Virus record (IMG/VR): IMGVR_UViG_3300032265_001314
Span: 27,272-91,271 of that record
DNA: 64,000 nt
Strand: one strand, 5' to 3'
Origin: a virus
The translations under genes were made by a program, and so were the position numbers. Positions 12,545 through 60,499 of this stretch are shown here, one piece after another (the stretch's first letter is position 1; every line of letters begins with the position of its first letter). The notes below the pieces were generated by a model. The model saw only the letters and a program-made list of their open reading frames with translations, did no database searches and was not told where the DNA came from.

Positions 12545-13846
12545 TTAGGATGCTTTACAGACGAATTCCTCAAACTTTCCGTTGGGAGGGAGTGGCCATT
12601 CCTTTTCATAACGTGTAACCGTATAGGTAAATGCATCACCTAGTGCCTTACGAGCGATAGCTATTAGAGCTTCTCTCTGTGTCTCCGTTATAGGATCGTC
12701 TGTTACTATCTTATATTCGATCATTTCTCTGCTGTGCTGTATGACCTGATACTTGCGTATGATAAAGTCTAGCTCGTCAAAGTTATACATACCAACCATG
12801 GGCCAATAGCGCCTACCATCCGGCTGTATGATTAGATTGCGTTCTCTACCTACTACACGCTTTAGTGTTAGCAATCCTCTACCACAACTGCATTCCGGTC
12901 CACGTTCAGCATAGTCGCCTATAGAATAGCGTATCATTGGACTAGCATAATTGTGTAGATCAGTAACTACTACCCTGCCAATAGACCCCGCTGTGACTGG
13001 AGCACCTCGATCGTCTACAACTTCTACTACGAGATTTTGATCCATAGTATGATAGAGATCGCTGTCTGGGCATTTAGCTGCGATAGAACCCATCTCTTGG
13101 CTGCTATATGAATCTTCGATATCTAATCCAAATAGCTGCTTAGTCCTAACTCTGAGGCTATCGCTAACAGTCTCGCCTATAGTTTTGATATGTTTAAGTT
13201 TGAACTGGGGAATATCCTTCTCCCATATATCTAGCAGGGCCTTTAGATTGTTGGGATATACGATGAGGATGTTAGGATTAAAGCCGCGCAATAGCCTATC
13301 TTGTTCTTTGATATCAGTCCATATATTGATAGACAGCATAGGTCCAGTTTCGTGCATTAGCGCATAAGGAGCACCCCAGTTAGATATTTCTTTATTTTCA
13401 TGGTGTCCTGCTCGTATAGAAGCTAACCTTGACTTAAAGTCTCTCTTGTGCCAAAGTATCTCTTGATAGTTGAATGCGTAGAAGAACTGTGCTACTGTAT
13501 CTGTAGCTTTGATTACTACAGGTTCGCCTGTTGACCCTGAGGTCTTGACTACGCCCGGCTTGCCGTGATCCTTTGGTACTTCTCTAGCAAAGAAACTTTC
13601 ACCTGCCGATTGTATATCTCTACGAGAAAGCAAAGGTAGGGCAGTGATATTATCTACCGATATACCTTTAGGCTGTAATCCGGACACTCTTATGCGTTCT
13701 AGGAACCATTCACTGTTCTTCACGTGATGATTTACTAATGACTTGAGCTTTACGGTCTGTATATCCCTAAGAGCCTTGGGAGTATACCACTGAAGCTGTG
13801 ATAGAGTAGCCGTTAATGTCTTGAGTGCTTCTATCTTACTTGCCAT
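12545..13846 (-). CDS. phenylacetate-CoA ligase/CapK-like adenylate-forming enzyme
   Basis: TSGSTGEP, YSSQEMG and PMIRYSIGD...GR motifs. Confidence 0.85.
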   Translation of the reverse strand: MASKIEALKTLTATLSQLQWYTPKALRDIQTVKLKSLVNHHVKNSEWFLERIRVSGLQPKGISVDNITALPLLSRRDIQSAGESFFAREVPKDHGKPGVVKTSGSTGEPVVIKATDTVAQFFYAFNYQEILWHKRDFKSRLASIRAGHHENKEISNWGAPYALMHETGPMLSINIWTDIKEQDRLLRGFNPNILIVYPNNLKALLDIWEKDIPQFKLKHIKTIGETVSDSLRVRTKQLFGLDIEDSYSSQEMGSIAAKCPDSDLYHTMDQNLVVEVVDDRGAPVTAGSIGRVVVTDLHNYASPMIRYSIGDYAERGPECSCGRGLLTLKRVVGRERNLIIQPDGRRYWPMVGMYNFDELDFIIRKYQVIQHSREMIEYKIVTDDPITETQREALIAIARKALGDAFTYTVTRYEKEWPLPPNGKFEEFVCKAS

Positions 13847-14606
13847 CTTTTTTCCAAACTATGATAGGGCAAGTGTCTGCTAGATCATATCCTGTAGTTT
13901 CTACAAAATCTGCAATATCAAATACACACACCCACTGCTGCCTGTCTGGCACAAAAGTCACTGTGTCTATGTTTTCATATAGATCTATCGTATTGATATC
14001 ATCTATATTCCATCCCGTGCTCATGGCAACATATTTTCGATCCAGTGCTATCTCATTAAATAGATCTCTAACTTTTGCTAGCTCAACTGGTCCGTTATTT
14101 TTTGCTGCTATATAATAGACCATCTTCCATTTGAATCCGTTCCATCCTAACCCAGTGCGGGCTTGTAGGTCGTATTTTAATTCTTCTATCGTAACTGGTA
14201 TCCTTGGGCGTTCAAACACACGCTGTATCAATCGACCATTTGGTTTTAACCAAAGCTTACACTTGTTTGCAAAGTTAACCATATTGTCTAATTTACCTAA
14301 CAGTCCCAAAGCACCGTCACTTATGATATTTCCAAACTGTCCTGGAGACCAAGTCATTGTTTTCCAATCAGCTAGAATGGCTTTTTTGGATTCGGTATCT
14401 CCGGGCCAAACAGTATCTATCATGTGTTGATTAACATCTACTGCTAGCAGGTTATCAAATAGCGGATGGAATTCCGGTGTTACACCTAGCAATAGAGTCT
14501 CACCCGTAACACAGAGATCTCGCATCTGCTGTGCTACTTGAGTAGTAGGACGCAATGGTGGTGCTAGTCTATTCCAGCTAGCACTATGCTTGGGTAATGG
14601 ATTCAT
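13836..14606 (-). CDS. SAM-dependent methyltransferase-like protein
   Basis: LLLGVTPE, AVD, ADW and LKPNG (Rossmann MTase fold). Confidence 0.6.
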   Translation of the reverse strand: MNPLPKHSASWNRLAPPLRPTTQVAQQMRDLCVTGETLLLGVTPEFHPLFDNLLAVDVNQHMIDTVWPGDTESKKAILADWKTMTWSPGQFGNIISDGALGLLGKLDNMVNFANKCKLWLKPNGRLIQRVFERPRIPVTIEELKYDLQARTGLGWNGFKWKMVYYIAAKNNGPVELAKVRDLFNEIALDRKYVAMSTGWNIDDINTIDLYENIDTVTFVPDRQQWVCVFDIADFVETTGYDLADTCPIIVWKKDGK

Positions 14607-15195
14607 TTTGTTTCCCTAATAGATAGTTAAGAACCATTCCATATAGTGGAACGATGATCGCCGATGCAAATATCAGCTTGCCAAGCACACCGTTAGTGGC
14701 TACTTCAAACCAATGCTCTGCCATAAATGCGTTTGCACTTCCAATAAATGCTGCTGCGAAGAACAAGTATGTTGATAGCGCCATCATAACATTGCCACTA
14801 ATTAATGGAGCGATCCACCACTGTGTATACTTTTCGCGTAGAAACTGGAATACATATACATCTAGTAACTGTGCTACAATGTAGCTAAATCCACTAGCAA
14901 GGGCTACTCGTACAGCGACCGATTCCGGAGCACCACTAGCCATTATAACTAGTATGCTAGCGAGGATACCTGGGATAAAACTTACTGCCACTACTAGCCT
15001 AGCCGTGTTCTTGCCTATCAATCTTACCGTTAGATCAGTTAGCAAGAATACCAATGGGTAGACTAACGTACTGTAGGCAATCGGACTATCAAACACCGTA
15101 AATTTGAAGTTAACTAAAAAGTTGCTAAATGCAATCACTGCTGTATGTAATAGCATTAATCGTAATAAAATATTCTTATCTATGTTGTTAAACAT
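14584..15195 (-). CDS. yhhQ: YhhQ/VUT-family 7-deazaguanine (preQ0/preQ1) transporter
   Basis: Six TMs; SNFLV, PLVFLLTDLTVR, RVALAS and QLLDVYVF motifs. Confidence 0.85.
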   Translation of the reverse strand: MFNNIDKNILLRLMLLHTAVIAFSNFLVNFKFTVFDSPIAYSTLVYPLVFLLTDLTVRLIGKNTARLVVAVSFIPGILASILVIMASGAPESVAVRVALASGFSYIVAQLLDVYVFQFLREKYTQWWIAPLISGNVMMALSTYLFFAAAFIGSANAFMAEHWFEVATNGVLGKLIFASAIIVPLYGMVLNYLLGKQNESITQA

Positions 15196-16067
15196 TAAAT
15201 GGTTCCTTTCGCATTATCGTCTCGCCATTCCATTATTTCTTTGTGCTCGCTATCTATTAGCTCGCTATAGCTCATTGGTTTAGCTTTGCTATCACGCACG
15301 AATGCTAATAGAAATCTCTTGCCGAAACCGTAATGTTCTGGATATTCTTTCTTAAGCGTATTGTATCCTCGTATATCTTCCTTGTAACCCAAACGATTCA
15401 TTATAATCTTGAGTGCGCCCATGCTGGGTAAGATCCCTAGTATGTTGCTGACTGCTTCGTGATTGTCATGATGCATCATCTTACCATTATCATTGTAGCT
15501 AACAAATGGGTAACCGTATTCAACACCGAGCATTAGCTTATGTAAGCTCTCATATGATTCTTCTCCCTTTAGTTTTCCTATCTCATTAATCAAAGGTAAT
15601 AAAAAAGGGATAGGTGGATGTATGCTTTCGATCACTATAGTATTAGCACAAGTTGCCATAGCAGTTAGGACAGGAAGGAAATTGGTGATAGCGTGTAGCA
15701 CTCCACCAATGATTATATAATCGTATTCTTCCAAATTGTTCTCAAGGAAGGTTTCACAGCTATCTGTTACGATATCCCAGTTATCTAAGTACCCATAATA
15801 TTTGGTGAGATTTTGATCAGCGATAGCTGCCAATGGTTTGCTTATTTCCACACCTACATATTTCTTAGCTCCGTTGCTTAAAGCATATGCTCCAAATGCT
15901 CCTAGACAGCAACCTAAATCCAGCACTGATTTATCTTTTAAAAACTGTGGGGGTATCCAAGCTTCATATCTTGCTAGCTGCGTTTCTGCAGTGAATTCCC
16001 GTTCGATAGCTTGATCAGTGCGTGGATCTCTAGTGATAAAGTCTGTCTGTGTTTCAAATATGTTCAA
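15195..16067 (-). CDS. class I SAM-dependent methyltransferase
   Basis: VLDLGCCLG, GVEIS and GVLH motifs. Confidence 0.75.
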   Translation of the reverse strand: MNIFETQTDFITRDPRTDQAIEREFTAETQLARYEAWIPPQFLKDKSVLDLGCCLGAFGAYALSNGAKKYVGVEISKPLAAIADQNLTKYYGYLDNWDIVTDSCETFLENNLEEYDYIIIGGVLHAITNFLPVLTAMATCANTIVIESIHPPIPFLLPLINEIGKLKGEESYESLHKLMLGVEYGYPFVSYNDNGKMMHHDNHEAVSNILGILPSMGALKIIMNRLGYKEDIRGYNTLKKEYPEHYGFGKRFLLAFVRDSKAKPMSYSELIDSEHKEIMEWRDDNAKGTI

Positions 16068-17270: not shown

Positions 17271-18092
17271 TTATATCTCCACAATAAGGTTAGGATTAAA
17301 TCCATTCGTCTCTCCTGGATATCCTCTAGGGTTACAAACGATACGGGTGTCGCCGATCATATAGTCCCAACAGTCGTGTACGTGTCCGTGGACCCATAAT
17401 TTGATCTGAGGATGATCAACAATATACTCATCAAGTCTATTAACAAATGCGTGATTCATTACATCTTGATTCTTGTACTTTGGATGTATGCTGCTATGTG
17501 ATGGAGCGTGATGCCCAAGCACTACCACTTTGCCGTCCCAGCCGCGCACACCTTCCTTAATAAATTCTACTGCATATCTATTAGCTTTAACTGTATCGAT
17601 AGGCCGCAGCTTATGATAGACCCCGCTGTTCTCGATAGTGATAGCACGGTAGTCAGTCATCATAAATCTAACACCCTCCATCGTCAATGGATCGGCATTG
17701 TTAATATCAGTCCATAGGCTAGTGCCAATGATACGGGTATCACCTATATTGAGCCAAGTGTTATCCATCATAGTGATGTTTGGCCAAGGCTCAAGCGCAT
17801 CCCTTAATCTTTCGGCTGTGTTATTCCATCTACCGTGATAGTATTCGTGATTACCCATGATATAATAGACAGTATCAAACTCTAAGCTGATATGATTGAA
17901 AAACTCGCGATAACGTTCGGCATCTTTAGCATAGAATCCATTGTTAGGTAACCCATATGTTGCTGGATTTTTATAAAGATGATCTACCACGCAGATATCG
18001 CCAGCGAGCACAAGTGCATCTGCTCCAGCATTAACGATTGTAGGCGGATCGCGGAATTCTAGATGTAAATCACTAATTATCTGCAGTTTCAT
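17271..18092 (-). CDS. calcineurin-like metallophosphoesterase
   Basis: SDLHLE, LAGDI, GNHE, HHAP, HGHVH and CNPRGY motifs. Confidence 0.9.
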   Translation of the reverse strand: MKLQIISDLHLEFRDPPTIVNAGADALVLAGDICVVDHLYKNPATYGLPNNGFYAKDAERYREFFNHISLEFDTVYYIMGNHEYYHGRWNNTAERLRDALEPWPNITMMDNTWLNIGDTRIIGTSLWTDINNADPLTMEGVRFMMTDYRAITIENSGVYHKLRPIDTVKANRYAVEFIKEGVRGWDGKVVVLGHHAPSHSSIHPKYKNQDVMNHAFVNRLDEYIVDHPQIKLWVHGHVHDCWDYMIGDTRIVCNPRGYPGETNGFNPNLIVEI

Positions 18093-33266: not shown

Positions 33267-33468
33267 ACTAGTGCTCCTCTGTATTATTTAATATAACACA
33301 TTACTAAATAGTGTCAATACAAATAAGGGATAAGGCATAGCATAATACCCACTGTAACTGCCATCCAGTTGATGGCCAATAGCACGAATAGAGTCTTTAT
33401 AAAATTTATCATATTTTAGTTATAACACTAATCAGATCAGCAGTCAAGCAAAAGACCCCGCTGTAGTA

Positions 33469-33789
33469 TTATCTAGATCCCGACACTTTAGAATTGGCAG
33501 CAACGGCACCTTGATAAATCCTTTGCGCTTTTGACATCAGCTTGTCGGTTAGTGTTGGTGGTTTATATTCTGGATCAGTTAGCTGTTGGACGAACGCATT
33601 TCCGAATGTAGCAAGAGGATTTGGAGTCTTGGGGTCGTCTACATCATCAGGACTATTTGGATTCTTCAGAGGTTTTTTATTTTGGTAGCGAGAGTTATAT
33701 TTGTCCACGGCACGTTGCAGATAAGCGGCTTTATGCAGCTTATCTGGATCAATATCGTAATACTCTTCTGTAAACTCTTTAGCTCTCAT
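33469..33789 (-). CDS. hypothetical late protein (MRAKEF N-terminus)
   Basis: TAAATA 5 nt upstream of ATG. Confidence 0.55.
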   Translation of the reverse strand: MRAKEFTEEYYDIDPDKLHKAAYLQRAVDKYNSRYQNKKPLKNPNSPDDVDDPKTPNPLATFGNAFVQQLTDPEYKPPTLTDKLMSKAQRIYQGAVAANSKVSGSR

Positions 33790-35026: not shown

Positions 35027-35602
35027 TCAATGGAAATTGAAAAGATAATTTACTCTACTTTTTGCCATATTTTTAAGTTTTTTCATTCCACCAGCAGAGA
35101 TTCTAAATTGCCAAGAATCATCTCTATCAATTATTCGTTCTAGATTTCCAAAAATAGATCCCTTGATATAAGTTGATCTATTTCCTGCTTTGTACTGCTG
35201 CCTTATTTTTTCGTAAGCATCTTCGAATTTTTGTTGGATAAAAGGGTCAGAAAAATCATATATCTCAGTATTTGTAACTACAGCAAAATCATCATTATAA
35301 TCAATATGATATTGTGTTTGTAATTTTTGATACAAATGCGTATCTCTGTAAGCTAAACTAATTAATTCCTCTCCATGGATAACACCTACCGTATGGGGAC
35401 TTGTTGATCCGTTCTTTCTAGATTTGATTTCGACTTTGAGTGCCGGTATATCAACCCCTTTTCCGTTTGATATTCCAAAACCTTTATTCCTCATTTCTTT
35501 TTCAAAATAGCGACCATTATTACCATTAGATTGAGAATAGGGGACTTGGTCGCCTACATTTATTGCATTCCTAAGTTTTTTTAGTTTGATTTTTGTGCTC
35601 AT
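35027..35602 (-). CDS. PD-(D/E)XK endonuclease-like protein
   Basis: GRYFE...GVDIP..KVEIKSRK. Confidence 0.55.
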   Translation of the reverse strand: MSTKIKLKKLRNAINVGDQVPYSQSNGNNGRYFEKEMRNKGFGISNGKGVDIPALKVEIKSRKNGSTSPHTVGVIHGEELISLAYRDTHLYQKLQTQYHIDYNDDFAVVTNTEIYDFSDPFIQQKFEDAYEKIRQQYKAGNRSTYIKGSIFGNLERIIDRDDSWQFRISAGGMKKLKNMAKSRVNYLFNFH

Positions 35603-35725
35603 TTATAATACTCCGTAGGTATTTTTTAATAATAGCATATTATTTATATTGCTCAAATCTTTTTATTATCGCGGAGTAGACCCCGCTGTGGCTTATTCTA
35701 TAAGATAGCATCTATCGTGCTAATG

Positions 35726-37211: not shown

Positions 37212-37255
37212 CGTATATTCCTTATCAAAATTAAAAGACCCCGCTGTGACTTATT

Positions 37256-37465
37256 TTATAAGCCAACCTTGATCTTTTGAGATCTAACAAATCCACAAGA
37301 ATCGCAGCTTTGGAACTGTATATAGTCACCGTAGAGATTCTTTTGTAGTTTATGATCCCACTTGCGCCAAACGTGTATGTTCCATCGGCACTTCCACGAA
37401 GATACTAACAACGGTCTGTCTGCTAGAGTTCTTACGAGATTTTCTTTATCGACCGAGCTTGCCAT
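37256..37465 (-). CDS. small Zn-ribbon protein (paralog of 57291..57530)
   Basis: ENLVRTL, C..HxW.KW and CDSCG. Confidence 0.6.
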   Translation of the reverse strand: MASSVDKENLVRTLADRPLLVSSWKCRWNIHVWRKWDHKLQKNLYGDYIQFQSCDSCGFVRSQKIKVGL

Positions 37466-37500
37466 ATAAAACAAAGACCCCGCTGTTGGTAGATAAAGTA

Positions 37501-41230: not shown

Positions 41231-42433
41231 GTGCATAAAAATCTAAAAGACCTCATCATTAAACAGAATCCAACGCTAGTTGAGGATAGGATTATAATCA
41301 AACGTAGCAGCAAGAAAGCCAAATACATACGCTTTATGAATGGCTGCGGTGTTGAGGACTTTGATCAGTTCCTCGCTATCCTAGATGCTACACAGCTTGA
41401 GCGCACACCTACAGATGAATACACTAGAGCTCCTAGATTCTTTGGTAAAGGCTTTAACCTAAAGTTTAAGGATCACGACATTGGCGTGCTGTTCTCTAAA
41501 CGCGGTGCTGGACACATTGAACAGAAGAAGCTGAGTCCAATGACACTGGGACTTAGTGGTTATAGGACTAGAGATGCCGCTGAGTTCAAACAGAAGATCA
41601 TTGATGGACTTAATGCTGTAGAGCACGACGCAGACATTCGAAACTGTTTGATCTCTACATTATATAATATAGAGGACGGTACACCAATAAGCGACCCAAC
41701 AGGCTTCCTTGCTACAGGTTCAAATGTCAGTATGGTTACTAGCGATTTTGGTGAAGTGCTGGCTGCATATAAAAGTTGTTTGGACGGCAAAGAGATTTAT
41801 TTTCCAACTGCCAGCAACAATCAGATCGCAGACTATTACGAGAATGGTAGACCTATTAGCGCAAAAGGACGCAAAGGCGGTGCGGGTGTTAATCTAGTCA
41901 AATACCGCGACCTAATCGTCTTAGATAATGATGTGAGCAAGTTCCTCTATTCGTTAGCTACACACGATAGAGATATGTTTTTTGAGTATGGTACTAAGAT
42001 CTGCCCGCAAGCAAGGCTTTTAGCCGATTGGGTTGGAGGTACTACCCAAGACGCCATTAGAGAATACGTTAAGACTATTTCATATGATGATTTCTACGCT
42101 AAGGTAGCAGAAGAGATTGGCACACTAGGTATTCCAAGTGGTGATCAACCTAGAGTTATTTGGCTAGATGGTGACATCAATCCCTTTAACTTCACACTCA
42201 ATACAGTCATCGATAGATATTGGGGTAGACATAATAGTGCAGACATTACCGCAGTCGTTGGATCATTGTTAAACAGTGCTACCTTCCTAAAGGTTGACAT
42301 ACAGGGCTCAACTGTTATATTCAATGAGCTAAAGTTTGAAGACGTTAAGCAATGGCAGACCAAGTATTGGGGCAATGCAGTCAATGCTTGGAATAATTAT
42401 ATGAGCGTATCAGCAGCAGAGGACACAGAATGA
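41231..42433 (+). CDS. putative (restriction-like) endonuclease
   Basis: DFGEV...FP..SN..IADY...ISAK (PD-(D/E/S)xK-like); coupled to the MTase. Confidence 0.45.
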   Translation: MHKNLKDLIIKQNPTLVEDRIIIKRSSKKAKYIRFMNGCGVEDFDQFLAILDATQLERTPTDEYTRAPRFFGKGFNLKFKDHDIGVLFSKRGAGHIEQKKLSPMTLGLSGYRTRDAAEFKQKIIDGLNAVEHDADIRNCLISTLYNIEDGTPISDPTGFLATGSNVSMVTSDFGEVLAAYKSCLDGKEIYFPTASNNQIADYYENGRPISAKGRKGGAGVNLVKYRDLIVLDNDVSKFLYSLATHDRDMFFEYGTKICPQARLLADWVGGTTQDAIREYVKTISYDDFYAKVAEEIGTLGIPSGDQPRVIWLDGDINPFNFTLNTVIDRYWGRHNSADITAVVGSLLNSATFLKVDIQGSTVIFNELKFEDVKQWQTKYWGNAVNAWNNYMSVSAAEDTE

Positions 42434-43347
42434 TCACTACCATACAAGGCGATATGTTAGCACAAGACCCCGCTGTTAAAGACGGATCTATTGATCTGCT
42501 ATTGACAGATCCTCCCTATAATATCAGCGGCGATGGCGCAAAGCCTGTATGGATCGATAAGACCACAGGAGAAAACAAAAGCACTATCCACAACCAAAAG
42601 TTCAGCGAAGAGTTTGAACAAGATTGGGACGATGTAAGTCATGATGAGTTTATCCAACAGATGACAAACTGGAGCCGTTTCTGGTTCAAGAAGCTGCGTA
42701 AGGGTGGTGCGTTCGCTGTGTTCATTAGCGATCAATATATCAGTTATCTATGGAAGATAATGGAAGCGGAAGGTTTTGAACCTAAGCGTGTATGGACTTG
42801 GAAGAAGCCCGCTGCGGTTCCATTTAATCGCAAGGTCAATCCGGTCAGTGCTTGCGAGTATATCCTATTTGGTATCAAACCAAAGGGCAAGCGCACATTC
42901 AACAGCGATGCTGTAGAAGGCGGCATCGTCGAGCGTTATGCTTCTGCAGACAAAGTAAGCAGCATCGTTTATAAGATGATGAAAGATAACCCGAGAGCAA
43001 ACCTAGACACTGTGTTCGCTATGGCAAAAGTAGAAGCCACACGTATGTTGGCTGATAGGAAACGCAACGGTAATGTCATAGAGTGCGTGATTCCAAACAC
43101 TATCACCTATAGTGGCGGACTTGGCAAGGACAAGATCCATCCTACACAGAAGCCCACAGAGATATTGGAATATTTCATCGAGCTGCTCAGCAATCCGGGA
43201 GATACGGTATTGGATACGTTTGCTGGTAGTGGTTCTACAGGAAAAGCCTGTGAAAAGCTGGGCAGGAACTGCGTATTGATTGAGCGCGATCCGGCTATGT
43301 ATGAAAAAATGGCAGCGAGGTTTTCCGCTGCCAATCTGTTTAGTTAG
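42430..43347 (+). CDS. N6A/N4C DNA methyltransferase, beta class
   Basis: TDPPY, HPTQKP and VLDTFAGSGST motifs. Confidence 0.92.
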   Translation: MITTIQGDMLAQDPAVKDGSIDLLLTDPPYNISGDGAKPVWIDKTTGENKSTIHNQKFSEEFEQDWDDVSHDEFIQQMTNWSRFWFKKLRKGGAFAVFISDQYISYLWKIMEAEGFEPKRVWTWKKPAAVPFNRKVNPVSACEYILFGIKPKGKRTFNSDAVEGGIVERYASADKVSSIVYKMMKDNPRANLDTVFAMAKVEATRMLADRKRNGNVIECVIPNTITYSGGLGKDKIHPTQKPTEILEYFIELLSNPGDTVLDTFAGSGSTGKACEKLGRNCVLIERDPAMYEKMAARFSAANLFS

Positions 43348-43996: not shown

Positions 43997-44158
43997 GTAT
44001 TTAACCTCTCAGCTTGAACGATAAGTGATTATATGCTAGTATTTGGATTAAATCAAGCACCAATACAGCAATAATCCAAAATAAAATCCTTGACAATCCG
44101 TTGACAAACCTTGCAGACGTGCTATTATAAAGCATAGATTAACACAAAGGAGCTGGTA

Positions 44159-44383: not shown

Positions 44384-44438
44384 CAGCCCACTGTGATATG
44401 CTATTATATAAACATAAGCTGAAACAAAGGAGAACACA

Positions 44439-44843: not shown

Positions 44844-45315
44844 CATGGATACCAAAGCCACACGTACCATTGAAGTAATAGTGCGACTCACTGTCCTAGA
44901 AGATGCTGACATCCAGGAAGTGATCAGCGAGATGGATTATGATTTCAACCACGAAGCTATCCAGTTGACAGAAATCGTTGATGTGAACACGGAGCTCTAA
45001 AATGTTTGACTTCTTTAATACTAAATTAAAGAGCTACAATATATTGCCGCTGTGGACTACCGAAGTTACATCTGAACCTAGCTCTATTGGGTCGTATGTT
45101 GTGTCTATGACATCCGATGGTGACACTACTCTAACACTCATAAACGGTGGAACGAGGATGACACTGCATATGACTACCGCAGGTACTAAAGAACTAATCC
45201 GCACACTCTCTGCTACTCTGCTAGAAGAGACAAAGACCCCGCTGTCCGCTGTAAGCCACTTGACAGCCCGTGTAGATATGCTATTATAAAGCATAAACAC
45301 AAACAGGAGCACACG

Positions 45316-46643: not shown

Positions 46644-46645
46644 CT

Positions 46646-51389: not shown

Positions 51390-51633
51390 TCGTGGAAATC
51401 GTGATGTGGACATTCGTGGGGCTATGCGGAGTTGGACTCTGCGTAGCCTTTGTGGTACTTTGGGAAAATCTCATAGACCTCAACCAACAGGTGCAGAGAC
51501 TAGAAGCAGATGCTAGGCGAGAACTAGCCGAACGCAAGAGGCAAGAGCGTAGCGAATCGGTATTAAAAGCGCAAGAAGCGGTAGCAAAGCCGAAGATCAT
51601 TAAGCCAATCTCTATGAAAATGATGGTGAGATA

Positions 51634-51945
51634 ATGGCGGAAGCCAGACAAGCTATCACAGCCGTAATCTATGACAGGCGCGGTCGAAAGATCAGTGAAG
51701 GTCGCAATCACTATACCAAGAGCCATCCTTATCAAGCTCGTATGGCTAGAGAAGCGGGCCTGCATCACAAGATCTTCCTCCACGCTGAGATCGAAGCATT
51801 GGTGCGTCTGCGCGATTGGAGCCGGGCTCATAGGATCGTAGTGGAACGCTATGCTAAGAGTGGCGAACCTGCCCTAGCAAAACCCTGTCCTGTCTGCCAA
51901 CGGGCCCTTAGGTTAGCGGGCATTAAACACGTTGAACATACTTGA
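51634..51945 (+). CDS. Zn-dependent nucleoside/nucleotide deaminase family protein
   Basis: LHAE...KPCPVC. Confidence 0.8.
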   Translation: MAEARQAITAVIYDRRGRKISEGRNHYTKSHPYQARMAREAGLHHKIFLHAEIEALVRLRDWSRAHRIVVERYAKSGEPALAKPCPVCQRALRLAGIKHVEHT

Positions 51946-52449
51946 CGATCCACTAAGATGTGTTATTGTAAAGCATAAACAAAAACGCAAGAGGTACAGT
52001 ATGTCAAAAGAACAAATGGTACTCGAAGGGATCAAAAGCTATCTGCGGGCCGCAGGAACTCCCGTCTTTGACGATGAGTTTGAAAGCGAGCCTACTATGC
52101 AGGGCTATATGAAAGCCTGCCATAACGCACTGGAATATATCCAAACACTCGAAACAATCTTTGGAGGTAAAAATGCAGCCGTGGCCAGCCGGGACTGAAT
52201 GTCCTTTTGAGTTTTATCCGGAGTTCAAAGCTCTCCTCAACCAAGCCAGCTATCACTACGCAGATGATAGTGGTAATGAATGGCAGAAAGGTAGCCTCTG
52301 CCTAGAGGATGCTGCCAACATGGCAGCTGATCTCGAACTACCGTTCTGGGTTATCGATCGCTTGGTCCGAGAAACCAAGAGCTTGGTCACACTAGAAACG
52401 TTCATGAGCAAGATGCTCGATTATCTCTACAGGCAAAAAGGAGTTTAAT

Positions 52450-52791
52450 ATGGGATTTTTCAGCTGGGAATGTGCTAAGACCGGATTGCCTATCCTCAAC
52501 GAATACACGGCAATCGGCGACTATGCGTTCGCTAACAGGGTAGTGGTCCTGTTCAAGGACGGCGGCGTTGCCAAGGGTAGCTATGATGGTTATGGCCGTG
52601 TGCGGAGCGAATTAGGCGTCATTGAGCTCGTTGAAATGAACGAGAAGGATTGGCGCATGGTGATCGAGCGCTTCTACGAGGGCGAGCCTTGGTCGGCGTT
52701 CCCCGTCAATCATAACGATCCCGGGCAGGGCCACTTCTATGACGAGGATGACCTGCATGAAATCTTTGAACTAGCTATGATAGACGCTTGA
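52450..52791 (+). CDS. hypothetical protein
   Basis: MGFFSW and YDGYG; GGAG RBS. Confidence 0.6.
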   Translation: MGFFSWECAKTGLPILNEYTAIGDYAFANRVVVLFKDGGVAKGSYDGYGRVRSELGVIELVEMNEKDWRMVIERFYEGEPWSAFPVNHNDPGQGHFYDEDDLHEIFELAMIDA

Positions 52792-53511
52792 CAAACCACT
52801 AAGCTGTGCTATTATACATTATAAACACTAACACACAACGGAGAACACGATGATGAACACTTGGGATTTCCTCGATAGCATCGATGATCGCATTACCTCT
52901 TATGTAGCCAAGATGGAAGAGGTACTAGCTGAGGATCTAGGATTGGATCGTCGTAGTGCTTACCGCTTGTATGTGGATGCCGATCGTACCTGTATCGCAG
53001 TGAGTGAGAGCTATGATCGCACACTCCAATATTACGGCGGGTTCGAGTATGTAGATAGAGAGTATCGCCGTGAGGTAGGTAACTGGGTGTTTTACTTTGC
53101 CGAAAGCGATCGTGTGCAGGGTCATCTGGAAAACCTCAACGATCTGCCCGAGCCTGAGACTGCGGATGATAATGCTCTCGCCGAGGAGTTTTGATATGAC
53201 GGGTTTCGCGAGCAAGCGCCTCATGGTACAGGATAAGATGGAGGGTGATGTGAGCACAGATTCACGCAAGCTGCTGTTGGAGCAGTTGGAAGAGATCGTG
53301 AGCCAAGCGCTCGAGCTGCTGGAGACTAGCGAGGATCTGCCCGACACCGCAGATGCTATTTGGAGCTCAATCAATGATGCTTGGCAAGCTATCAATGACG
53401 AACTCTTTGACATAGAAACCCAAAAAACCGCGACGATTGAACGTGCAACCCATTGACAAAGCCTGCGACTGTGCTATTATAAACTGTAAGCACAAAACAG
53501 AGGAGAGCGCA

Positions 53512-53640
53512 ATGCAAAAACAACGTAGTCCATATGCTAAAGCATTAGCGGATCCTCTGTTCCGCAAGCGCATCGTCGCGGCCCGCAAGGGCAAGGGTTC
53601 ATATAACCGTAAAAAGAAAGGCACTAAATGTCAGAACTGA
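53512..53640 (+). CDS. arfA: alternative ribosome rescue factor A-like peptide (42 aa)
   Basis: ALADPLFRKRIVAARKGKGSYNRK matches the ArfA core (DPLFRQR...KKGKGSYxRK); own promoter and GAGGAG RBS. Confidence 0.8.
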   Translation: MQKQRSPYAKALADPLFRKRIVAARKGKGSYNRKKKGTKCQN

Positions 53641-54644
53641 TTTTCTTTAAAGAAGGCACCTACACCCTGCAGGGTCGTCCGGCTAGCGTAGCCAACATGG
53701 TTTTTCCTCTCGTAGAGGGTCTGCGTGAGGACAGTGAAGGCGCTTATGTTACCGTCGATGCACGGGGCATCAAGCGTTTTCCGGATCGCAATATCCGTGT
53801 GCGTGTCGTTGGTAAGGACAGCTTTATTCCGCATAGCGGAACTGTGGTCCAGCATCTCGCAGAAGCTGTGAAGAATGAAACGGATCTAGAGATCAAAGAG
53901 CGGTTGCGTAAGCGTTTCGGTATCCTTAGCGATATGACCCGTGCTGCTAAAAGCGGTGATGTCCGTGCTGTTATCGTCAGCGGTCCTCCAGGTGTCGGCA
54001 AGAGCTACGGTGTTGAGCAAGAGCTTTCTAAGAATGATCTGTTTACCACTATCGCTAACAAGAAGCCCAAGTATGAAGTCGTCAAGGGTGCTATGAGCGC
54101 ACTGGGTCTTTATATCAAACTGCACGAATATAAGGACAAGGGCAATGTCATCGTATTTGATGATTGTGATAGCGTTCTGTTTGATGATCTTAGCCTTAAT
54201 ATTCTAAAGGCTGCGTTGGACACTAGCAAGCGGCGCACTATCAGTTGGAACACTGACAGCCGCATCTTGCGTGAAGAGAACATCCCCAACCGCTTTGACT
54301 TTGAAGCTAGTGCTATGTTCATCAGTAACATCAAGTTCGACAATGTCAAGAGCAAGAAGCTCAAGGATCATCTAGAAGCGCTCGAGAGCCGCTGCCATTA
54401 CGTGGATCTCACGATTAACAGTGAGCGCGACAAGATGCTGCGTATCCGACAGATCGTTGAAGACGGTATGCTGCGTGAGTATGGCCTCGAGTATGAGGAA
54501 GTAGAGCAGATCCTCAACTTCATCGACGCCAACAAGAAGCGGCTGCGTGAGCTCAGCTTGCGGACCGTGCTAAAGCTGGCAGATCTCAAGAAGAGCTTTG
54601 GTGATCGTTTCGAAGATTACGCCACGGTGACGCTGCTGCGCTAA
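53628..54644 (+). CDS. AAA-family ATPase
   Basis: GPPGVGKS, VFDDCD, ISN and ALESR motifs. Confidence 0.85.
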   Translation: MSELIFFKEGTYTLQGRPASVANMVFPLVEGLREDSEGAYVTVDARGIKRFPDRNIRVRVVGKDSFIPHSGTVVQHLAEAVKNETDLEIKERLRKRFGILSDMTRAAKSGDVRAVIVSGPPGVGKSYGVEQELSKNDLFTTIANKKPKYEVVKGAMSALGLYIKLHEYKDKGNVIVFDDCDSVLFDDLSLNILKAALDTSKRRTISWNTDSRILREENIPNRFDFEASAMFISNIKFDNVKSKKLKDHLEALESRCHYVDLTINSERDKMLRIRQIVEDGMLREYGLEYEEVEQILNFIDANKKRLRELSLRTVLKLADLKKSFGDRFEDYATVTLLR

Positions 54645-54657
54645 CTATACACGTGGT

Positions 54658-54699
54658 GGTCCTCGTGCTATGTGCTGTGTATGCTGTAGCACGAGGACC
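54658..54699 (+). terminator. 13-bp inverted repeat after the ATPase gene
   Basis: GGTCCTCGTGCTA/TAGCACGAGGACC; no U-tract. Confidence 0.4.
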
Positions 54700-55015
54700 C
54701 AGCTGTAGCCGCGTTTATAGCGGTTCTAGACGGTGTTTATAATGAGCAAAATGTGCTGCTGCACGAGGAGAGAACGATGACTAGAGACAGAGCAGGTGAG
54801 CGAGTGACTATAGATTCGATGGTATCTGATTGGTTGTCTAAAGGCAACACGATCACCAAGATAGAAGAGGGTCGCAAGACTGATCCAGCAGAGCTTAAGA
54901 ACCAGTGGGGGCGTCCACGTGCCAAGAAGCCAGTGTTGGACGAGCAGCCCGTTGACAAACCTAAAAAAGCTGCTAAAATTAAAAAGTAAGCTAAACACTA
55001 ACAGAGAGAACAGCT

Positions 55016-55621
55016 ATGCCAAATTGGTGCGATAATTCGGTTACTTTCACACACGAAGATCCCCTGCAGATCCAGCGTTTGATCGCTGCTTATAACGAAG
55101 GCACACTACTCAATGAGTTCATGCCTCTCCCAGAAGAGCTGCGTGAGACTACTAGCCCTATGAGTGCTGATGACAGTGATGAGGGCAGTCGACTGATTGA
55201 AAAGTATGGTTTTGCTAACTGGTATGATTGGTGCGTGAACACTTGGGGTACCAAGTGGGATATCGACAACAACGGTAACGGAGAAACCCTAGCAGAAGGT
55301 GCGACAGAAGTCACTATCAGCTTCCAGACCGCTTGGAGCTTCCCAGGTGGGTTTTATCAGCACATGGTAGACGAGCTGGGCTTTGGCGTCCGTGCTTTCT
55401 ACTACGAGCCCGGTATGTCGTTCTGTGGTCTGTGGGAAGATGGTGACGATGACTACTACGAGATCGAAGGCGACAGCAAGTGGGTCGAAGATCACATCCC
55501 CCGCACTATCGATGACTGTTTCGCTATCAGCGAGAACATGAGCCAATGGGAAGAAGAAGCTACGGCAGAAGAGATCCTCGCACCTTTCATCGCTGCTAAC
55601 ACTGACATGGAGACTGAATAA
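55016..55621 (+). CDS. DUF1281/YubB-like ferredoxin-fold protein
   Basis: MPNWC.N, WYDWC..WGTKWD, FQTAWS and YYEPG..FCG motifs. Confidence 0.75.
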   Translation: MPNWCDNSVTFTHEDPLQIQRLIAAYNEGTLLNEFMPLPEELRETTSPMSADDSDEGSRLIEKYGFANWYDWCVNTWGTKWDIDNNGNGETLAEGATEVTISFQTAWSFPGGFYQHMVDELGFGVRAFYYEPGMSFCGLWEDGDDDYYEIEGDSKWVEDHIPRTIDDCFAISENMSQWEEEATAEEILAPFIAANTDMETE

Positions 55622-55759
55622 TGTATCAGGTGACCTGCTATGACGATCGAGCCAATTTCTCTACACTTTCAGAAGCTAAGGCCTATGCCGAAAAGGCCAG
55701 CTGGATCGCTAACCAAACAGCGGAGATCCGCTGTCCAGATGGCAAGCGCATCACTGTTG

Positions 55760-56506
55760 ATGTCAATAAGCGATCATAAACCTTGGTTGATCGCACTGCT
55801 GCTGGTCTCAGCATCTGCGGGCGATACCCAGTGGCAAAAGACGATACCAGTAGCGGGCCCACAGCCCGCTACCCATGCTTCGCCATACGGTGAGCTTGAC
55901 TATAGGATCGCTTCGGCTCCTCTGTTAGCCCCGCCCACAGCAGGAGCACCGCCGCTGGAACAGCCCCTAGCCCATCTGATCGAGCATGAGGTAGCCGTCG
56001 AAGAACCCATGCATATACCGTTCCTAGTACCTCCCATACCTCCCGCTAGGCCCAAGCGGTTCGCTCCTAACCAAGACGAGATATTCGATGAGGTCAATCG
56101 CATCGCGCAGGCCGAAGGTGTGCCCACGTTCCTAGCGCAGGACATCATCAAGCAGGAAAGCCGCTACGATCCCACGGTAACTAATGGACGGGCCATGGGG
56201 TTGGGGCAGATCAAATGTGCTACCGCACGTGGTGTGGGTTTCCGAGGTGACTGCCACGAGCTGCTGGATGTCAAGACCAACCTCGTCTACAGTATGCGCT
56301 ATCTCCGGCAGGCTCTGGATCTAGCACACGGCGACTTCTGCCATGCTGCTACCCTCTACAATAGGGGGTTTGCTACTACCGCTACCACCAGCAGCTATTG
56401 TGATAGCCTAGTGAGGACCATGAGGGCGGAAAGCAGGGATAGCAGAAAACCATTGACAACGACCAAAAAGAAGCGTAAAGTCAGACATAAAGGCGAGGCA
56501 AAATGA
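55760..56506 (+). CDS. lytic transglycosylase (SLT domain)
   Basis: QESRYDP, GLGQI, TNL.Y.MRYL and YN.G; Pro-rich linker; start uncertain. Confidence 0.85.
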   Translation: MSISDHKPWLIALLLVSASAGDTQWQKTIPVAGPQPATHASPYGELDYRIASAPLLAPPTAGAPPLEQPLAHLIEHEVAVEEPMHIPFLVPPIPPARPKRFAPNQDEIFDEVNRIAQAEGVPTFLAQDIIKQESRYDPTVTNGRAMGLGQIKCATARGVGFRGDCHELLDVKTNLVYSMRYLRQALDLAHGDFCHAATLYNRGFATTATTSSYCDSLVRTMRAESRDSRKPLTTTKKKRKVRHKGEAK

Positions 56507-56596
56507 GGACACACATGGTACGGATCATCAGACTGTTTTGGTCACTGAGAGAGTGGCAGCGCATGACCCTGTTGGGCTTGATCGGTGGTTTGATCT

Positions 56597-58447
56597 ATGC
56601 AGCCGCACACTGACAAGTGGCGCCAGATACGCTATGACCCCCAACTGGACGGAGAGGATCGCTTGAGGCAGTGGCTCGATAGGAACGTGGGCGAGAGACT
56701 TTGGTTGCATAGCTTTGGCAAAGACGGAACGCAGGATCGCAAGAGCAAGCGTGGCTACTGGATAGCGTTCCATCCCAGTGTGCCCGAGAAGCTGTTGGTA
56801 TTGTTCACGTTGAGGTGGTTAGGCGATGCTGGTATTTAACGATTGGAGCCCTTGGCGCGAGAGGTTCGCTTGGTTCCCCAAGCAGCTGGAGATACGACGC
56901 TATCTGAGCGAACGTGATCTGGGCTATTGGACCACAGACACGCGATGGGTCTGGCTGAAGACCTACTACGAACGCGAGCATCGGAACGGCCTAGTGGGCC
57001 GCGGTGTGCATCCCATCATATACGATCACGAGACGGATCTTTTTGGAGTCTTACGCAAGTCATGAATCATACAGGTGATGTGATACACACGTTTTCAAAC
57101 CTCGAGGGCATCGGCCGCTGCATCAATCCCCTTACCACACGGGGTGCGACTTCACAGCAGAAGCTGTGGGCAGAAACACACTGCCAAGGCGAATGGGTCT
57201 GCAGCCAGATCTATGCTATCGATAGCGATACCCTATGGCTGTTTGAGCACGAAGCGGATAGGCTGCTATTCGCATTGAGATGGAGCGATCGTGGCAAGTA
57301 AGCTAGAACGAGAGAACCTAGTCCGTGTGCTAAGGGATCAAAAGCCCCTGCAGAACTGGGCCTGCAGGCTGGGACTGCAACGCTGGACACGTTGGGTATA
57401 CGAAGAGCGTTCTATAAATGCGGTCACGTTTGCACCAGAAGGCCGAGGCATCCAATACTGTGAGTGCGAACACTGTGGTTTCACACGCATGGAAAGACCC
57501 TATTCTAAGACATTATACAAGGAGAAATAGATGAAGCTGTGGCAGTATATAAAGCATTCAGATCTCTCGATCAAGCTATTCCTCAATCCCTGTAGTTGGT
57601 TCACCAATCCCCTAGATTGGGACTGCCACTGGGGCTCTACATACATGGATCCCGGCCTAGTGCTATATGCTACCATCAGGTTCCTCTTCGTACGGGTCCA
57701 CATACATATAGATGACGGAAGCTGGTAATGAGGACACCCGAACTGCTAATGCTATTGGCTCTGCTGTTAAGCGCGATCAATGCGGCTTTCTTATGGTTTG
57801 ATCTGGGTGTGAGGCTATGGTAGAAGAACGCCCCACGCTAGATCAACTGCTAGAGAGCCGTGTGGCCTATAAGTGGCCCTACACTGTGCCTATTGGTTTC
57901 CACGATGTCAAGACAGTAAGCCATTGGTGTGAAGACAACTGCCAATACCAATGGCGCAGAGATCCTTGGCAGAACACGTGGCTGTTCCAAGACGATCGTG
58001 ATGCGGTCCTATTCACACTCAAATGGGGCAACCGTGACCATAGATGATCTCATAACAGAGACCCTAGCGTGGCTCGACTATCACAGACGACAGAACAACA
58101 GGATAGAAGCTGCTGCCGCAGCCATACGCCTCAGAGCACTACGAGACTGCAAGGAGCTGACCAATGGAAGACACTAGATACAGTGCCATCACCCTACTGA
58201 TCATCTGTTTGGCGTTCAGTAGCTGTAGCATTAGCGATGGCATAAACAGGCACGGACTATGCGTAAGCCAATGCACCACGACCTACAACCGATAGGCCGA
58301 TGGCAATACACGGGCATAGCACCTATGAGCGTGATAGTTAAATGGTGCGAAGCCAAACTGCCCAAACACATGTGGCGGTATGACTGGGATACCATACACT
58401 TCTATGATGGTAAAGCCCACACACTGTTCCTACTAAGGTGGAGCTAA
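56597..58447 (+). CDS. cluster of small ORFs including FxL[RK]W proteins (56597-56839, 57062-57301, 57817-58047, 58259-58447) and Zn-ribbon 57291-57530
   Basis: LFTLRWL, LFALRWS, LFTLKWG and LFLLRWS ends; CEHCG. Confidence 0.6.
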
Positions 58448-59439
58448 GAGCCCCTAACAGTCACGAAGTGACCCGCGGCGCCGCGATTTTTATAAGTATG
58501 ATCATGCAACCAGAACTAGACCCAGAAGATGCGAAACTGCTAGTGATAGCCGCAGCCACAGTGATCACAGTGATAGCGGGGAGCCTCATAGTGGCGGGGA
58601 TACTAGCATGGATAGCTTAACTTACCTACGACACTTATACGACATACTGAGCTTTGAAGAACTGAGAAAAGCCATAGAAGACTATGAAAGGTTATTAAAT
58701 GCCCAAGCTGATGTTAGCAATGATCTACCCAACAGTGATGATACAGAGCCTCGTGCTAATGAACCTAGCAGTGATCGTTAATGCACTAGACCCCGCTGTA
58801 TATACAAGAAAGTAGACCCCGCTGCGATGACCCGTATACCCACAACAAGACCCGTAGTGAACAATGACGCACCCGCCGTGCCAGAAGACACTTGTCCCTA
58901 CATAGATATGGTGCTAGAAGCTGTAGACAGGATAAGCAACTGTAAGGATGAGAGCTGGCGGCGCCAACAGGTTGAATTGGTAGGACATCTACTAGAGCAT
59001 ATACGTGCGGCCAATAGCCAACTGAGGACTACTAGCAAGTTCTGGAGAGATAGGGCCAAACGTGTTTAGTGAGAAGCGAAAGGGTGATATGTGGATAAGC
59101 CACACTGTGCTAACAGATAACCAAAAGGAACTGTTGCGTAACAGTGGAGTGACCGTAGCTGCTATGGATAGTGTGCGTATCACTATAATGGAAACATTTG
59201 ACAGTCGTGGTGAGACACTGATGCGCTTGGTCGCTGGGGATACAGTAGTGACCTTTATGGGCCGCAAGAGGATGAGATCAGAATGAATAGGCATAGCATC
59301 ATAGCTGAGCTGGTAGCCCAGCTTTCAATCATACTGGTAATGGGGATAGTGCTGTGGCCCGTGATACGGGTCCTGCTAGCGTGGGCTGTAGAGTGAGCAG
59401 ATCCATAGGCATCCTCATTGGTGGCCGAGTGGGGTCTGT

Positions 59440-59472
59440 TTGGGACAGGATTGGGACAGGATTGGGACAGGA
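59440..59472 (+). repeat. 3 x TTGGGACAGGA tandem repeat
   Basis: Three perfect 11-bp units. Confidence 0.9.
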
Positions 59473-60011
59473 TCCGAATAATGATATAAACATATCTTTA
59501 TATCATTTTTGCATAGCCTGTCGTCACCATCACCGCCAAAATATCGTTAGCCTGTTTCCACCCTATCGCCACCGTTCAAACGGTCCAATCGCCACATTCT
59601 AGCCCACAGTCACTATAGCCTGCCACTGTGGATCAGTTATAACTTACAGTATAGCATAGCACAATGGCTTGTCTAGCGGATCCTGTGAGCAATATAGCCA
59701 TTGACGAGTCCATATAGTGTGCTATTATACATTATAAACACTAAGCAAAACGGAGCAGACATTATGGATTTAATAGCAACAAAAAACAAAGCTGCACTAA
59801 TGGAAGCCCTGCATACAGTTGGCATCCTGCTTGCACAATGCACTATTGATGGTGAAAGCGTGGATGAGGGCTGTGATGGCAGCTTTGAGCTGTTGGATGC
59901 GCTACACGCATTGGAAGAGAAATGCGATTACTACGTGGACTAACTGCCCATTGACAGTCCGCTATAACGTGCTACTATACATTATAAACACTGCAAACGA
60001 CGGAGCTGCGC

Positions 60012-60437
60012 ATGTATAACATTACACGTATGGATGATGGCTTTGAGTTATCTATAGCTGTTCCAAAAGGTGAACAGTTTGCGGGTGTAGGCATAACTGC
60101 TATTGACCTGTTTGTTTTTGCTAACACGGACGATGGCTGTGGTGACCTAGCTGTTGCGTGGGATGTGGCGGGCCTGGCTAACACGGGTGGTGGCGATATG
60201 GGTTCACTGCTTATGCGCGGATGGGATGATGCTGTTGGTAGGGTTATGGGTGAGTTTTACTGGGATGGTGGCTACACGGATCGCTTGTGTGGACTGCTTA
60301 TAGCTGCTGGCGTTCCGGAGAGTGTGGCAGCTAATGTTGGCACTAGCGAGTGGGGTATGCAGGACGAGGGGCGTGCTAGCTATGACGCTTATGAGCTTGC
60401 GGACTGGGTGCGAGAGCAGGTGGCTGTGATGGCATAA
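60012..60437 (+). CDS. early hypothetical protein
   Basis: Promoter plus GGAG; SEWGMQ motif. Confidence 0.6.
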   Translation: MYNITRMDDGFELSIAVPKGEQFAGVGITAIDLFVFANTDDGCGDLAVAWDVAGLANTGGGDMGSLLMRGWDDAVGRVMGEFYWDGGYTDRLCGLLIAAGVPESVAANVGTSEWGMQDEGRASYDAYELADWVREQVAVMA

Positions 60438-60499
60438 GACCCCGCTGTGCTTATACACATATAGACCCCGCTGCGGGTACCAATCACGAGGAGCACAAA

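Follow-up and report, generated by a model that had tools for sequence, protein, structure and literature searches.

Along a stretch of viral DNA of 64,000 nucleotides (the window), one 11-letter word recurs far more often than chance allows and always in the same direction, regardless of which way the surrounding genes are read. This raises the question of what reads the word, and what a reader gains from its direction.

Copies, direction and selection in the window

A search of both strands of the window yielded 12 perfect matches to AGACCCCGCTG, every one of them on the + strand, as against 0.02 copies expected from shuffles of the window, which bore out the strong one-strand excess claimed in the original prediction. 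The word was all-or-none, as copies with one mismatch were absent from the window and the nine matches with two mismatches corresponded to chance (8.3 expected). No further copy was present in the whole 91,271-b record, so that all copies of the record fall within 47.5 kb. The ORF layout likewise agreed with a predicted switch of gene strand, the genes lying on the - strand to the left of ~40.9 kb and on the + strand to the right of it. Six of the 12 copies are located in the - strand arm, yet all are on the + strand, opposing local transcription. No hairpin was found at the box in the window. The copies and the associated elements are as follows:

12983..12993, + strand: box within the - strand AMP-binding-like gene 12545..13846, against transcription
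17618..17628, + strand: box within the - strand metallophosphoesterase gene 17271..18092, codons N-S-G-V
33453..33463, + strand: intergenic box, 5 nt past the stop of the - strand gene 33469..33789
35678..35688, + strand: intergenic box, 21 nt upstream of the -35 of a - strand early-type promoter, 35656..35629
37236..37246, + strand: intergenic box between - strand genes
37475..37485, + strand: intergenic box adjoining the start of the small - strand gene 37256..37465; kept in G001
42465..42475, + strand: box in codons 12-15 (Q-D-P-A-V) of a + strand N6/N4 DNA methyltransferase gene
45234..45244, + strand: box 15 nt upstream of the -35 (45260) of a strong early promoter
58788..58824, + strand: tandem pair of boxes, 26-nt period; counterpart of the origin-side cluster of the family
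59440..59528, + strand: origin-like core with three 11-nt direct repeats (59440-59472), an AT-rich patch and a conserved element
59511-59528, + strand: family-conserved ...GCCTGTCGTCACC element, part of the origin-like core
60437..60473, + strand: second tandem pair of boxes, 26-nt period; overlaps the stop codon of 60012..60437

Four copies had been described as intragenic. This held for 12983, 17618 and 42465, which lie clearly within genes, but not for 45234, where the surrounding ORF of 95 aa is doubtful and is missing in the relative G001. The 17618 copy is missing from relatives with 60% protein identity and was therefore gained in the lineage of the window.

Comparison with G001 (~80% identical) revealed eight syntenic copies kept exactly, all of them on the + strand, in flanks that are 80-86% identical. 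Relatives were also checked for conservation of the intragenic copies at synonymous positions, as had been suggested, and it was found: within the boxes of three genes, 12 of 12 synonymous third positions were conserved as compared with fractions of 0.61-0.66 outside the boxes, the 12983 copy, exact at its syntenic site, contributing four of four. This shows that selection acts on the DNA word as such; the word is genuine, uniformly directed and maintained by that selection.

The other copies had varied histories. The 33453 copy belongs to a 3.9-kb segment that G001 does not have, the 58788..58824 pair has decayed in G001 to a single 10/11 copy, and two near-copies of the box in G001 oppose local transcription. 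Homology breakpoints occur within 3-10 nt of three window boxes: homology to G001 starts 3 nt ahead of the 37236 copy and 6 nt ahead of the 45234 copy, and a cassette swap relative to L138 begins 10 nt past the 60437..60473 pair. This coincidence was given little weight because such breakpoints mark almost all gene boundaries of the early island.

The box in a clade of uncultured jumbo phages

The box, AGRCCCCGCTG, characterizes a large, uncultured clade of T4-like jumbo phages of ~360 kb, and is new here; a literature search for the word and its complement returned unrelated primers only. No cultured relative of window positions 30000-50000 was found by megablast of these 20 kb among 50,697 phage records. 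The cultured phage nearest to the box-bearing clade is PA5oct, which has the same layout and no copy of the box. A marker gene of the clade is carried by at least 379 IMG/VR contigs, two of which are complete genomes of ~360 kb. In 79 relatives picked by this marker gene and not by the motif (914 kb), 88 copies were located on the early-gene strand and none on the other, and a reversed control pattern gave no match in the same sample. A single inverted copy was seen, in L119. The motif-pair scans also picked up satellites, collagen-like coding repeats and GC-rich repeats of bacteria, which were discarded as false positives on the basis of inspection and protein similarity.

The two complete genomes, of 357 and 364 kb, hold two to three copies each, grouped within 0.2-0.5 kb: G006 has three at 10588-10777 and G007 has two, with none elsewhere in either genome. 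Across the family, arrays consist of two to four head-to-tail copies spaced by 20-500 nt without a common period, tandem copies 20-44 nt apart being the commonest form, and such free spacing fits boxes that are independent and read by monomers. The word is identical across phages whose proteins are just 35-60% identical. In the lineage of the window, boxes have expanded to 8-12 copies over 45-48 kb, some intragenic and some opposing local transcription. In the window, G001, L101/L134 and G015, the + direction is retained even where copies lie between - strand genes or within them, and the polarity is thus independent of local gene direction, as had been proposed. Arrays were also considered as marks of genome ends; their distance to the nearest contig end, divided by half the length, averaged ~0.47 in 35 full contigs as against 0.5 expected, and hence gave no sign of such a role.

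The original prediction had envisaged a genome-wide signal of the Chi, KOPS or T5 type, a view that did not survive, because the few copies of the complete relatives cluster at one seat within 0.5 kb. A Chi- or KOPS-like signal for a host translocase (RecBCD/AddAB or FtsK) would account for the polarity and for a word constant across diverged phages, and freely spaced tandem copies would raise recognition by a moving enzyme. Known Chi and KOPS words have five to eight letters, however, and not 11, and two to three copies in a complete 360-kb genome are few for such a signal, which we regard as very improbable.

Nick sites of the kind known from T5, tf and the phiKMV-like phages deserve more consideration, although we consider them rather unlikely. 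A candidate phage nickase would cut the + strand in or beside each box, and the cuts close to the origin region would serve to prime replication or recombination. Such sites would explain a box kept on one strand across arms of opposite transcription, as in tf, the all-or-none word (12 exact against no one-mismatch copies) and the maintenance of intragenic copies at synonymous sites; since nicks promote recombination, the three boxes next to homology breakpoints would also fit, a weak coincidence given how frequent breakpoints are at every gene junction of the early island. However, copies confined to 0.5 kb of ~360 kb are not dispersed as in T5 or tf, the commonest form is a closely spaced tandem, and no nickase-like protein is found among the candidates put forward earlier. 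Of these, the supposed nuclease 35027..35602 carries no nuclease signature, with just a weak ATP-grasp-like match, and the region 41231..43347 resolves into 41231..42433, which matches no family, and 42430..43347, an ordinary N6/N4 methyltransferase. The broader idea of a sequence-specific DNA reader was nevertheless apt, because the polarity is real, independent of gene direction and conserved, and the word is under selection.

Early promoters and the seat of the array

In the family, 27 of 67 unique copies have a -35 sequence, TTGAC[AGT], at most 32 nt downstream, as compared with 5.6% of random windows; 40% of the copies thus stand 1-32 nt upstream of a sigma-70 -35 box, and copies frequently begin 0-6 nt past a stop codon. 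The promoter-side position of the 45234 copy is typical for the family, and the 35678 copy is directed away from its - strand early-type promoter. The 60437..60473 pair ends 26 nt ahead of the start of 60500..60703, the usual promoter place of other genes. No promoter was found upstream of the box at a fixed distance. The earlier statement that the word is not a promoter element was only half right, given how many family copies abut sigma-70 -35 boxes.

These positions recall an operator or 'stoperator' box, at which a monomeric regulator near early promoters and unit ends would stop early transcription or read-through in a direction-dependent manner. The enrichment near -35 boxes, the copies just past stop codons, the direction of the family copies with early transcription and the placement of the two window pairs where other genes have promoters all point this way, and L5 gp71 stoperators are likewise an asymmetric, dispersed word, of 11-13 nt. 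Closeness to promoters is partly trivial, however, because nearly every intergenic gap of the island has a promoter, and the distance to the -35 varies between 1 and 30 nt with no helical phasing. Moreover, stoperators flip with transcription, whereas half of the window copies, the two G001 near-copies and the lone L101/L134 copy oppose it. We therefore judge this role possible though unlikely.

A role as a promoter or its core, recognized by an RNA polymerase or sigma factor specific to the phage, with antisense transcripts in the - arm, is less probable by far. The highly conserved word is directed with the genes in the family, and tandem copies with a TA-rich stretch just downstream recall promoters of single-subunit polymerases. 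Nevertheless, the word is G+C-rich and poor for melting, it most often precedes an ordinary sigma-70 promoter instead of replacing one, copies occur inside and opposed to - strand genes, and no phage polymerase was found among the ten largest ORFs of the right-hand part of G001. PA5oct, the nearest cultured phage, also relies on host RNA polymerase (PMC7318152).

A signal at the RNA level, that is a processing, stability or protein-binding site in early transcripts or part of a non-coding RNA, would suit the 88 to 0 bias towards early transcription. In PA5oct, the region in the equivalent position is transcribed as a 619-nt lncRNA (lncRNA004), and the box forms the 5' half of a hairpin in L134, L081 and L091. 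Hairpins are not general, however, no Rfam match was obtained, and a consensus fold computed for the conserved stretch past the array gave no covariation (covariation term +4.36, with few pairs changing on both sides). As half of the window copies are antisense to their genes and still conserved, an RNA signal appears improbable.

In G006, G007, G003/G004 and L118/L078, the array is seated in the divergent non-coding region that heads the early-gene island. G006 has a sole DnaA-box cluster (five boxes, 11426-11530), 650 nt from its sole motif cluster, and the sole DnaA-box cluster likewise lies near the motif cluster in G008, G016, L249, L255, L265 and L101; in G006, G008, G016 and others, 0.6-0.9 kb separate the array from a unique DnaA-box cluster. 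The seat of the box is shared family-wide, and the DnaA-box neighbourhood is seen in several relatives. No DnaA-box cluster was detected in the window, G001, G003, G004 or the complete genome G007. The conserved element lies 190-320 nt downstream of the family arrays and recurs at 59511-59528 in the window, whose origin-like core at 59.4 kb, inside the early island, combines an AT-rich patch with three 11-nt repeats and has no DnaA-box cluster. The array-bearing region looks like a replication origin or an early-control region.

The small ORFs that separate the boxes lack family-wide conservation. For the gene ahead of the 42465 copy, a correspondence to a 400-aa gene that precedes a box in relatives was considered and rejected, as the two show no homology.

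Proposed role and comparison with known systems

Our best explanation, held tentatively and at somewhat less than an even chance, is that AGRCCCCGCTG is the box of one direction-sensitive protein, seated at an origin or early-control region, that gives direction or acts as a one-way block. The reader would be a sequence-specific protein, probably an early phage protein. The original seat would be the head-to-tail array of two to four boxes in the long non-coding region heading the early-gene island, amid short iterons, an AT-rich patch, the conserved ...CCTCTCGTCACC element and, in several relatives, clusters of host DnaA boxes, at a position equivalent to those of T4 oriE, with its iterons, and of the PA5oct lncRNA locus. 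One protein monomer may bind each box, every monomer oriented alike, and the region would thereby gain a direction. Orienting and blocking mechanisms can both be envisaged: the box may serve an initiator or accessory protein that fixes the way replication leaves, or it may block forks or RNA polymerase from one side, like Tus-Ter or a replication-fork barrier. When the boxes multiplied to 8-12 over 45 kb in the lineage of the window, including intragenic and - arm copies, they kept a single direction along the genome, as a strand-specific enzyme or a one-way block would require but a promoter or RNA signal would not.

Several observations count against this explanation, namely the lack of a match to any Pfam DNA-binding family among the conserved early proteins examined (134, 128 and 201 aa, and an NrdC.10-like ATPase), the irregular spacing, the lack of DnaA clusters in several members, the absence of an array at the 40.9-kb divergence point of the window, whose origin-like core is at 59.4 kb, and the inverted L119 copy; the 40% of family copies abutting an early-promoter -35 would also fit a purely transcriptional role. 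A more specific proposal treats each box, read by a phage protein, as a barrier that acts from one side or as a site cut on one strand, so that replication from a DnaA-assisted origin leaves one way; we regard it as speculative, with perhaps a minor chance of being correct. If true, a jumbo phage would possess a direction system of a Ter-like or nick-based kind, which the lineage of the window has spread across 45 kb and into coding sequence.

How and in which direction replication starts in jumbo T4-like phages is almost unknown, and the T4 oriE iterons have no assigned role. The box provides a precise, family-wide landmark of a candidate origin or early-control region, which in several members also recruits host DnaA boxes, and it can be used as bait for its reader protein. 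A one-directional word that spread into genes and was kept at silent sites is also a clean natural test case for signal evolution.

Among known systems, the stoperators of Cluster A mycobacteriophages (L5 gp71) are similar in that an asymmetric box of ~13 nt is read by a monomer, occurs in many copies, mostly in short intergenic gaps, and acts in a direction-dependent manner. They differ in tracking local transcription, whereas the direction of the box is fixed relative to the genome, and no lysogeny functions were seen in the scanned ORFs of these jumbo T4-like phages. By analogy, the box would also resemble Tus-Ter and fork barriers, as an asymmetric, one-sided site between and inside genes with several copies in the same direction. 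Ter sites, however, form two opposed groups and the boxes face one direction only, and we know of no Tus-like protein here.

The resemblance to the one-strand nick sites of tf, noted in the original prediction, is genuine: tf has 14 nick sites on the top strand only, across two convergent arms, with positions kept in relatives (PMC3517423). In tf, T5 and phiKMV-like phages, as here, a word (9-19 nt there) lies on one strand whatever the gene direction, with few near-variants, also on that strand, and with positions common to relatives (PMC3517423). Their sites are spread over the genome, whereas the complete relatives here have one small cluster.

T4 oriE has 12-nt iterons at the point of transcriptional divergence, syntenic in related phages (PMC3016281). 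Iterons are evenly spaced, at about one or two helical turns, unlike the boxes with their irregular 20-500 nt, their single copies by promoters and, in the lineage of the window, their intragenic copies. Nevertheless, as in T4 oriE and in iteron plasmids and phages, short direct repeats are clustered in the early region near transcriptional divergence, and as in an iteron-type origin, the arrays are direct-repeat clusters in non-coding DNA; DnaA boxes lie nearby in several relatives but not in G007 or the window, which has just the AT-rich patch and the 11-nt repeats.

Copies of the box and selection on its DNA word

The window contains 12 copies of the 11-nt box, AGACCCCGCTG, every one on the + strand and none on the − strand, as the original prediction had it, against 0.02 copies expected from dinucleotide-preserving shuffles. 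No one-mismatch version was found in the window and the nine two-mismatch matches are at chance level, so that the word behaves as all-or-none. The window forms the final 64 kb of a virus record of 91,271 b with an estimated completeness of 27%, and no further copies are present in the 27 kb that precede it. From left to right, gene orientation switches from − to + at ∼40.9 kb, so that six copies run against local transcription and six with it.

Three copies are located within real genes, namely an AMP-binding-like gene, a metallophosphoesterase and an N6/N4 DNA methyltransferase, whereas a fourth, at 45234, originally also counted as intragenic, is better described as lying upstream of an early promoter, 15 nt before its −35 element. 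The box is read in differing frames and on differing coding strands, and is thus not a protein motif, in agreement with the original prediction. Neither of the two proteins put forward as nucleases (35027..35602 and 41231..43347) shows a nuclease signature. The methyltransferase gene (42430-43347) has the box at its codons 12-15, and its start overlaps the 3' end of the 400-aa gene before it.

Selection on the word was assessed with G001, a relative of 115,969 b with ∼80% nucleotide identity to the window and identical gene order, which carries eight copies of the box, all on the + strand.

Window sites of the box matched in G001
12983, 17618, 37236, 37475, 42465, 45234, 60437, 60463; + strand; exact matches

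The flanks of these eight copies are 80-86% identical to the window. In the three genes, the window and G001 agree at all 12 synonymous third positions that fall within the box, as compared with 61-66% of those outside it (product of the outside-box rates, ∼0.004); the conservation of intragenic copies foreseen in the original prediction was thus found, and the DNA word is under selection. Relatives with a 60%-identical phosphoesterase have no box at the matching site, indicating that the intragenic copies are young. G001 has in addition three copies with a single mismatch, which are likewise confined to the + strand; one of these is the decayed counterpart of the window pair 58788/58814. To the right of the 37475 copy, window positions 37486-37600 are almost identical in G001, beyond the level of the flanking genes, and represent either a gene end or a conserved non-coding element.

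Polarity and usual seat of the box in the family

A first sample of relatives was obtained by scanning viral contigs for tandem box pairs, which yielded two distant relatives, G003 and G004, with one pair each in the non-coding DNA that separates the arm of − strand genes from the + strand early island. The same scan on metagenome contigs added many further arrays, each with 2-4 copies at spacings of 20-130 nt, and at least 23 of these loci have early-island proteins in common with the window. Because these loci had been found through the motif, a second sample was drawn via a marker gene, the NrdC.10-like ATPase (53628..54644), which had matches in 379 viral contigs; the 80 best-matching contigs were retrieved and oriented by this gene. 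With G001 left out, 79 loci (914 kb) entered the polarity count: the box was present in 42 of them, with 88 copies on the strand of the marker gene versus none on the other, and the reversed control word did not occur at all. The family form is AGRCCCCGCTG, most often with G at position 3; the window lineage has A, and some genomes carry both. A single inverted copy was seen in a relative (L119, 31-41); it is situated 320 nt upstream of an ordinary pair, within 1.3 kb of DNA rich in TATAGTGTATAG-type repeats and terminator-like hairpins. Polarity is therefore very strong, not absolute. The box is real, highly non-random, polar and conserved, and no description of it was found in the searchable literature.

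The nearest cultured phage is the Pseudomonas jumbo phage PA5oct (48% identity in the NrdC.10-like ATPase). Other proteins encoded by G001 include a large terminase of the T4 type, a UvsX/RecA-like protein, a DnaB-like helicase and a tail sheath, which place the family among the T4-like jumbo myoviruses.

Of two complete genomes from relatives, G006 (357,559 b) holds three copies at 10588-10777 and G007 (363,943 b) two copies 468 nt apart, with no others in either; other large fragments carry 2-4 copies on a single strand. The clusters of two or three copies in the complete genomes contradict a genome-wide signal of the Chi, KOPS or T5 type, the types named in the original prediction, and a host translocase signal is highly improbable. 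Nick sites spread over the genome as in T5 are contradicted by the same counts. One-strand nick sites can mimic the box pattern closely, as those of phage tf show (PMC3517423); we regard nick sites as unlikely.

The usual seat of the box is a non-coding region of 1-1.5 kb at the junction of the − arm and the early-island head, where the copies are oriented into the island, and many members have an extra single copy 4-5 kb past the ATPase gene, directly before another early promoter. TTGAC[AGT] follows within 32 nt downstream in 27 of 67 unique copies, versus 5.6% of random windows, at distances of 1 to 30 nt without phasing. A regulator box beside promoters, the reading that this proximity brings to mind, appears rather unlikely. 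The family-wide direction also agrees with early transcription, as would be expected of an RNA signal or of a promoter for a phage polymerase. Neither of these fits the six opposed copies of the window, the near-copies of G001 or the single copy in L101 and L134, two loci from relatives: all of them oppose the local genes while keeping the genome-wide direction, and some of the gene-opposing copies are held by selection. Neither a conserved RNA fold after the array nor an Rfam family matching the box region was found. We consider an RNA signal improbable and a phage-polymerase promoter very improbable.

Origin-like features of the box-bearing region

The box-bearing non-coding region looks like a replication origin in its sequence features, listed here for two relatives and the window.

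Origin-like elements
G006 11426-11530 (= L194 2680-2800): five perfect DnaA boxes, head-to-tail
G016 27117-27210: seven perfect DnaA boxes at 11-nt steps, head-to-tail
Window 59440-59472: three perfect 11-nt direct repeats, TTGGGACAGGA
Window 59511-59528: window variant of the family-conserved ...GCCTGTCGTCACC element

The five-box DnaA cluster is the sole one of its kind in the 357-kb G006 genome and lies 650 nt from its sole box cluster; the same pairing is present in G008, G016, L249, L255, L265 and L101. The clusters of the relatives contain 5-7 perfect host DnaA boxes, several at 11-nt steps. This arrangement points to a DnaA-dependent origin or to titration of DnaA by the jumbo phage; no such cluster was found in G007, G003, G004, G001 or the window. 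Many members have a conserved element, ...GAACTATGCCTCTCGTCACC, located 190-320 nt beyond the final copy of the box, and its variant in the window is the one at 59511-59528. In the window, an AT-rich patch and the 11-nt repeats adjoin the 59511-59528 element 700 nt after the pair 58788/58814, which identifies this pair as the counterpart of the family cluster and makes 59440-59528 a candidate replication origin core. In the window lineage, the origin-like core is now inside the early island, with one box pair on each side.

PA5oct has the same layout, with a − arm, 1.8 kb of non-coding DNA in which a lncRNA defined by RNA-seq and a highly AT-rich tract are found, and a + island with the ATPase gene, and carries no copy of the box. 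Its lncRNA004 (L270; MK797984 245980-247789), at the early-island head in a position equivalent to the box-bearing region of the family and followed by ∼1 kb of extremely AT-rich DNA, may represent a transcript of an origin.

Early-island mosaicism and the nature of the box

The early island is a patchwork with a breakpoint at almost every gene junction. Boxes 37236 and 45234 are separated by 3-6 nt from points at which homology with G001 breaks off, and a cassette swap against the related locus L138 is found 10 nt from the pair 60437/60463, which is weak evidence for a possible role in recombination. A 3.9-kb segment (33299-37234) encoding a radical-SAM protein, a tRNA, a weakly ATP-grasp-like protein and two proteins without a family match is missing in G001, and box copies lie at the cassette borders (33453, 35678 and 37236). 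On the + strand, the region 44100-63800 holds ∼22 strong sigma-70 early promoters of nearly identical sequence (TTGACA, 14 nt, TGCTATTAT); each precedes a small gene, and their leaders are also almost the same. Differences between close relatives involve entire promoter-gene cassettes, reminiscent of the way in which T4-type phages shuffle promoter-stem-loop cassettes. Some of the five tRNA genes are inside the early island.

Further early promoters and tRNA genes in the window
35629 and 38645, − strand: early promoters
34921-34994 and 37961-38040, − strand: tRNA genes (Rfam)
61003-61076, 61088-61167 and 62582-62654: tRNA genes (Rfam)

A direction fixed relative to the genome would be required if the box served as a one-way barrier, as the site of a strand-specific enzyme or as part of a directional origin, and freely spaced arrays would suit independent monomer boxes. 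Genome-fixed direction and free spacing together make a protein box that is sensitive to direction and belongs to the origin or early-control region the best explanation, which we put forward tentatively. As a cis-acting recognition box it would belong to a familiar kind, comparable to iterons, stoperators, Ter or nick sites. T4 oriE, with 12-nt direct repeats of undefined role near a transcriptional divergence point and syntenic in relatives, provides a precedent for a direct-repeat box array in such a position (PMC3016281).
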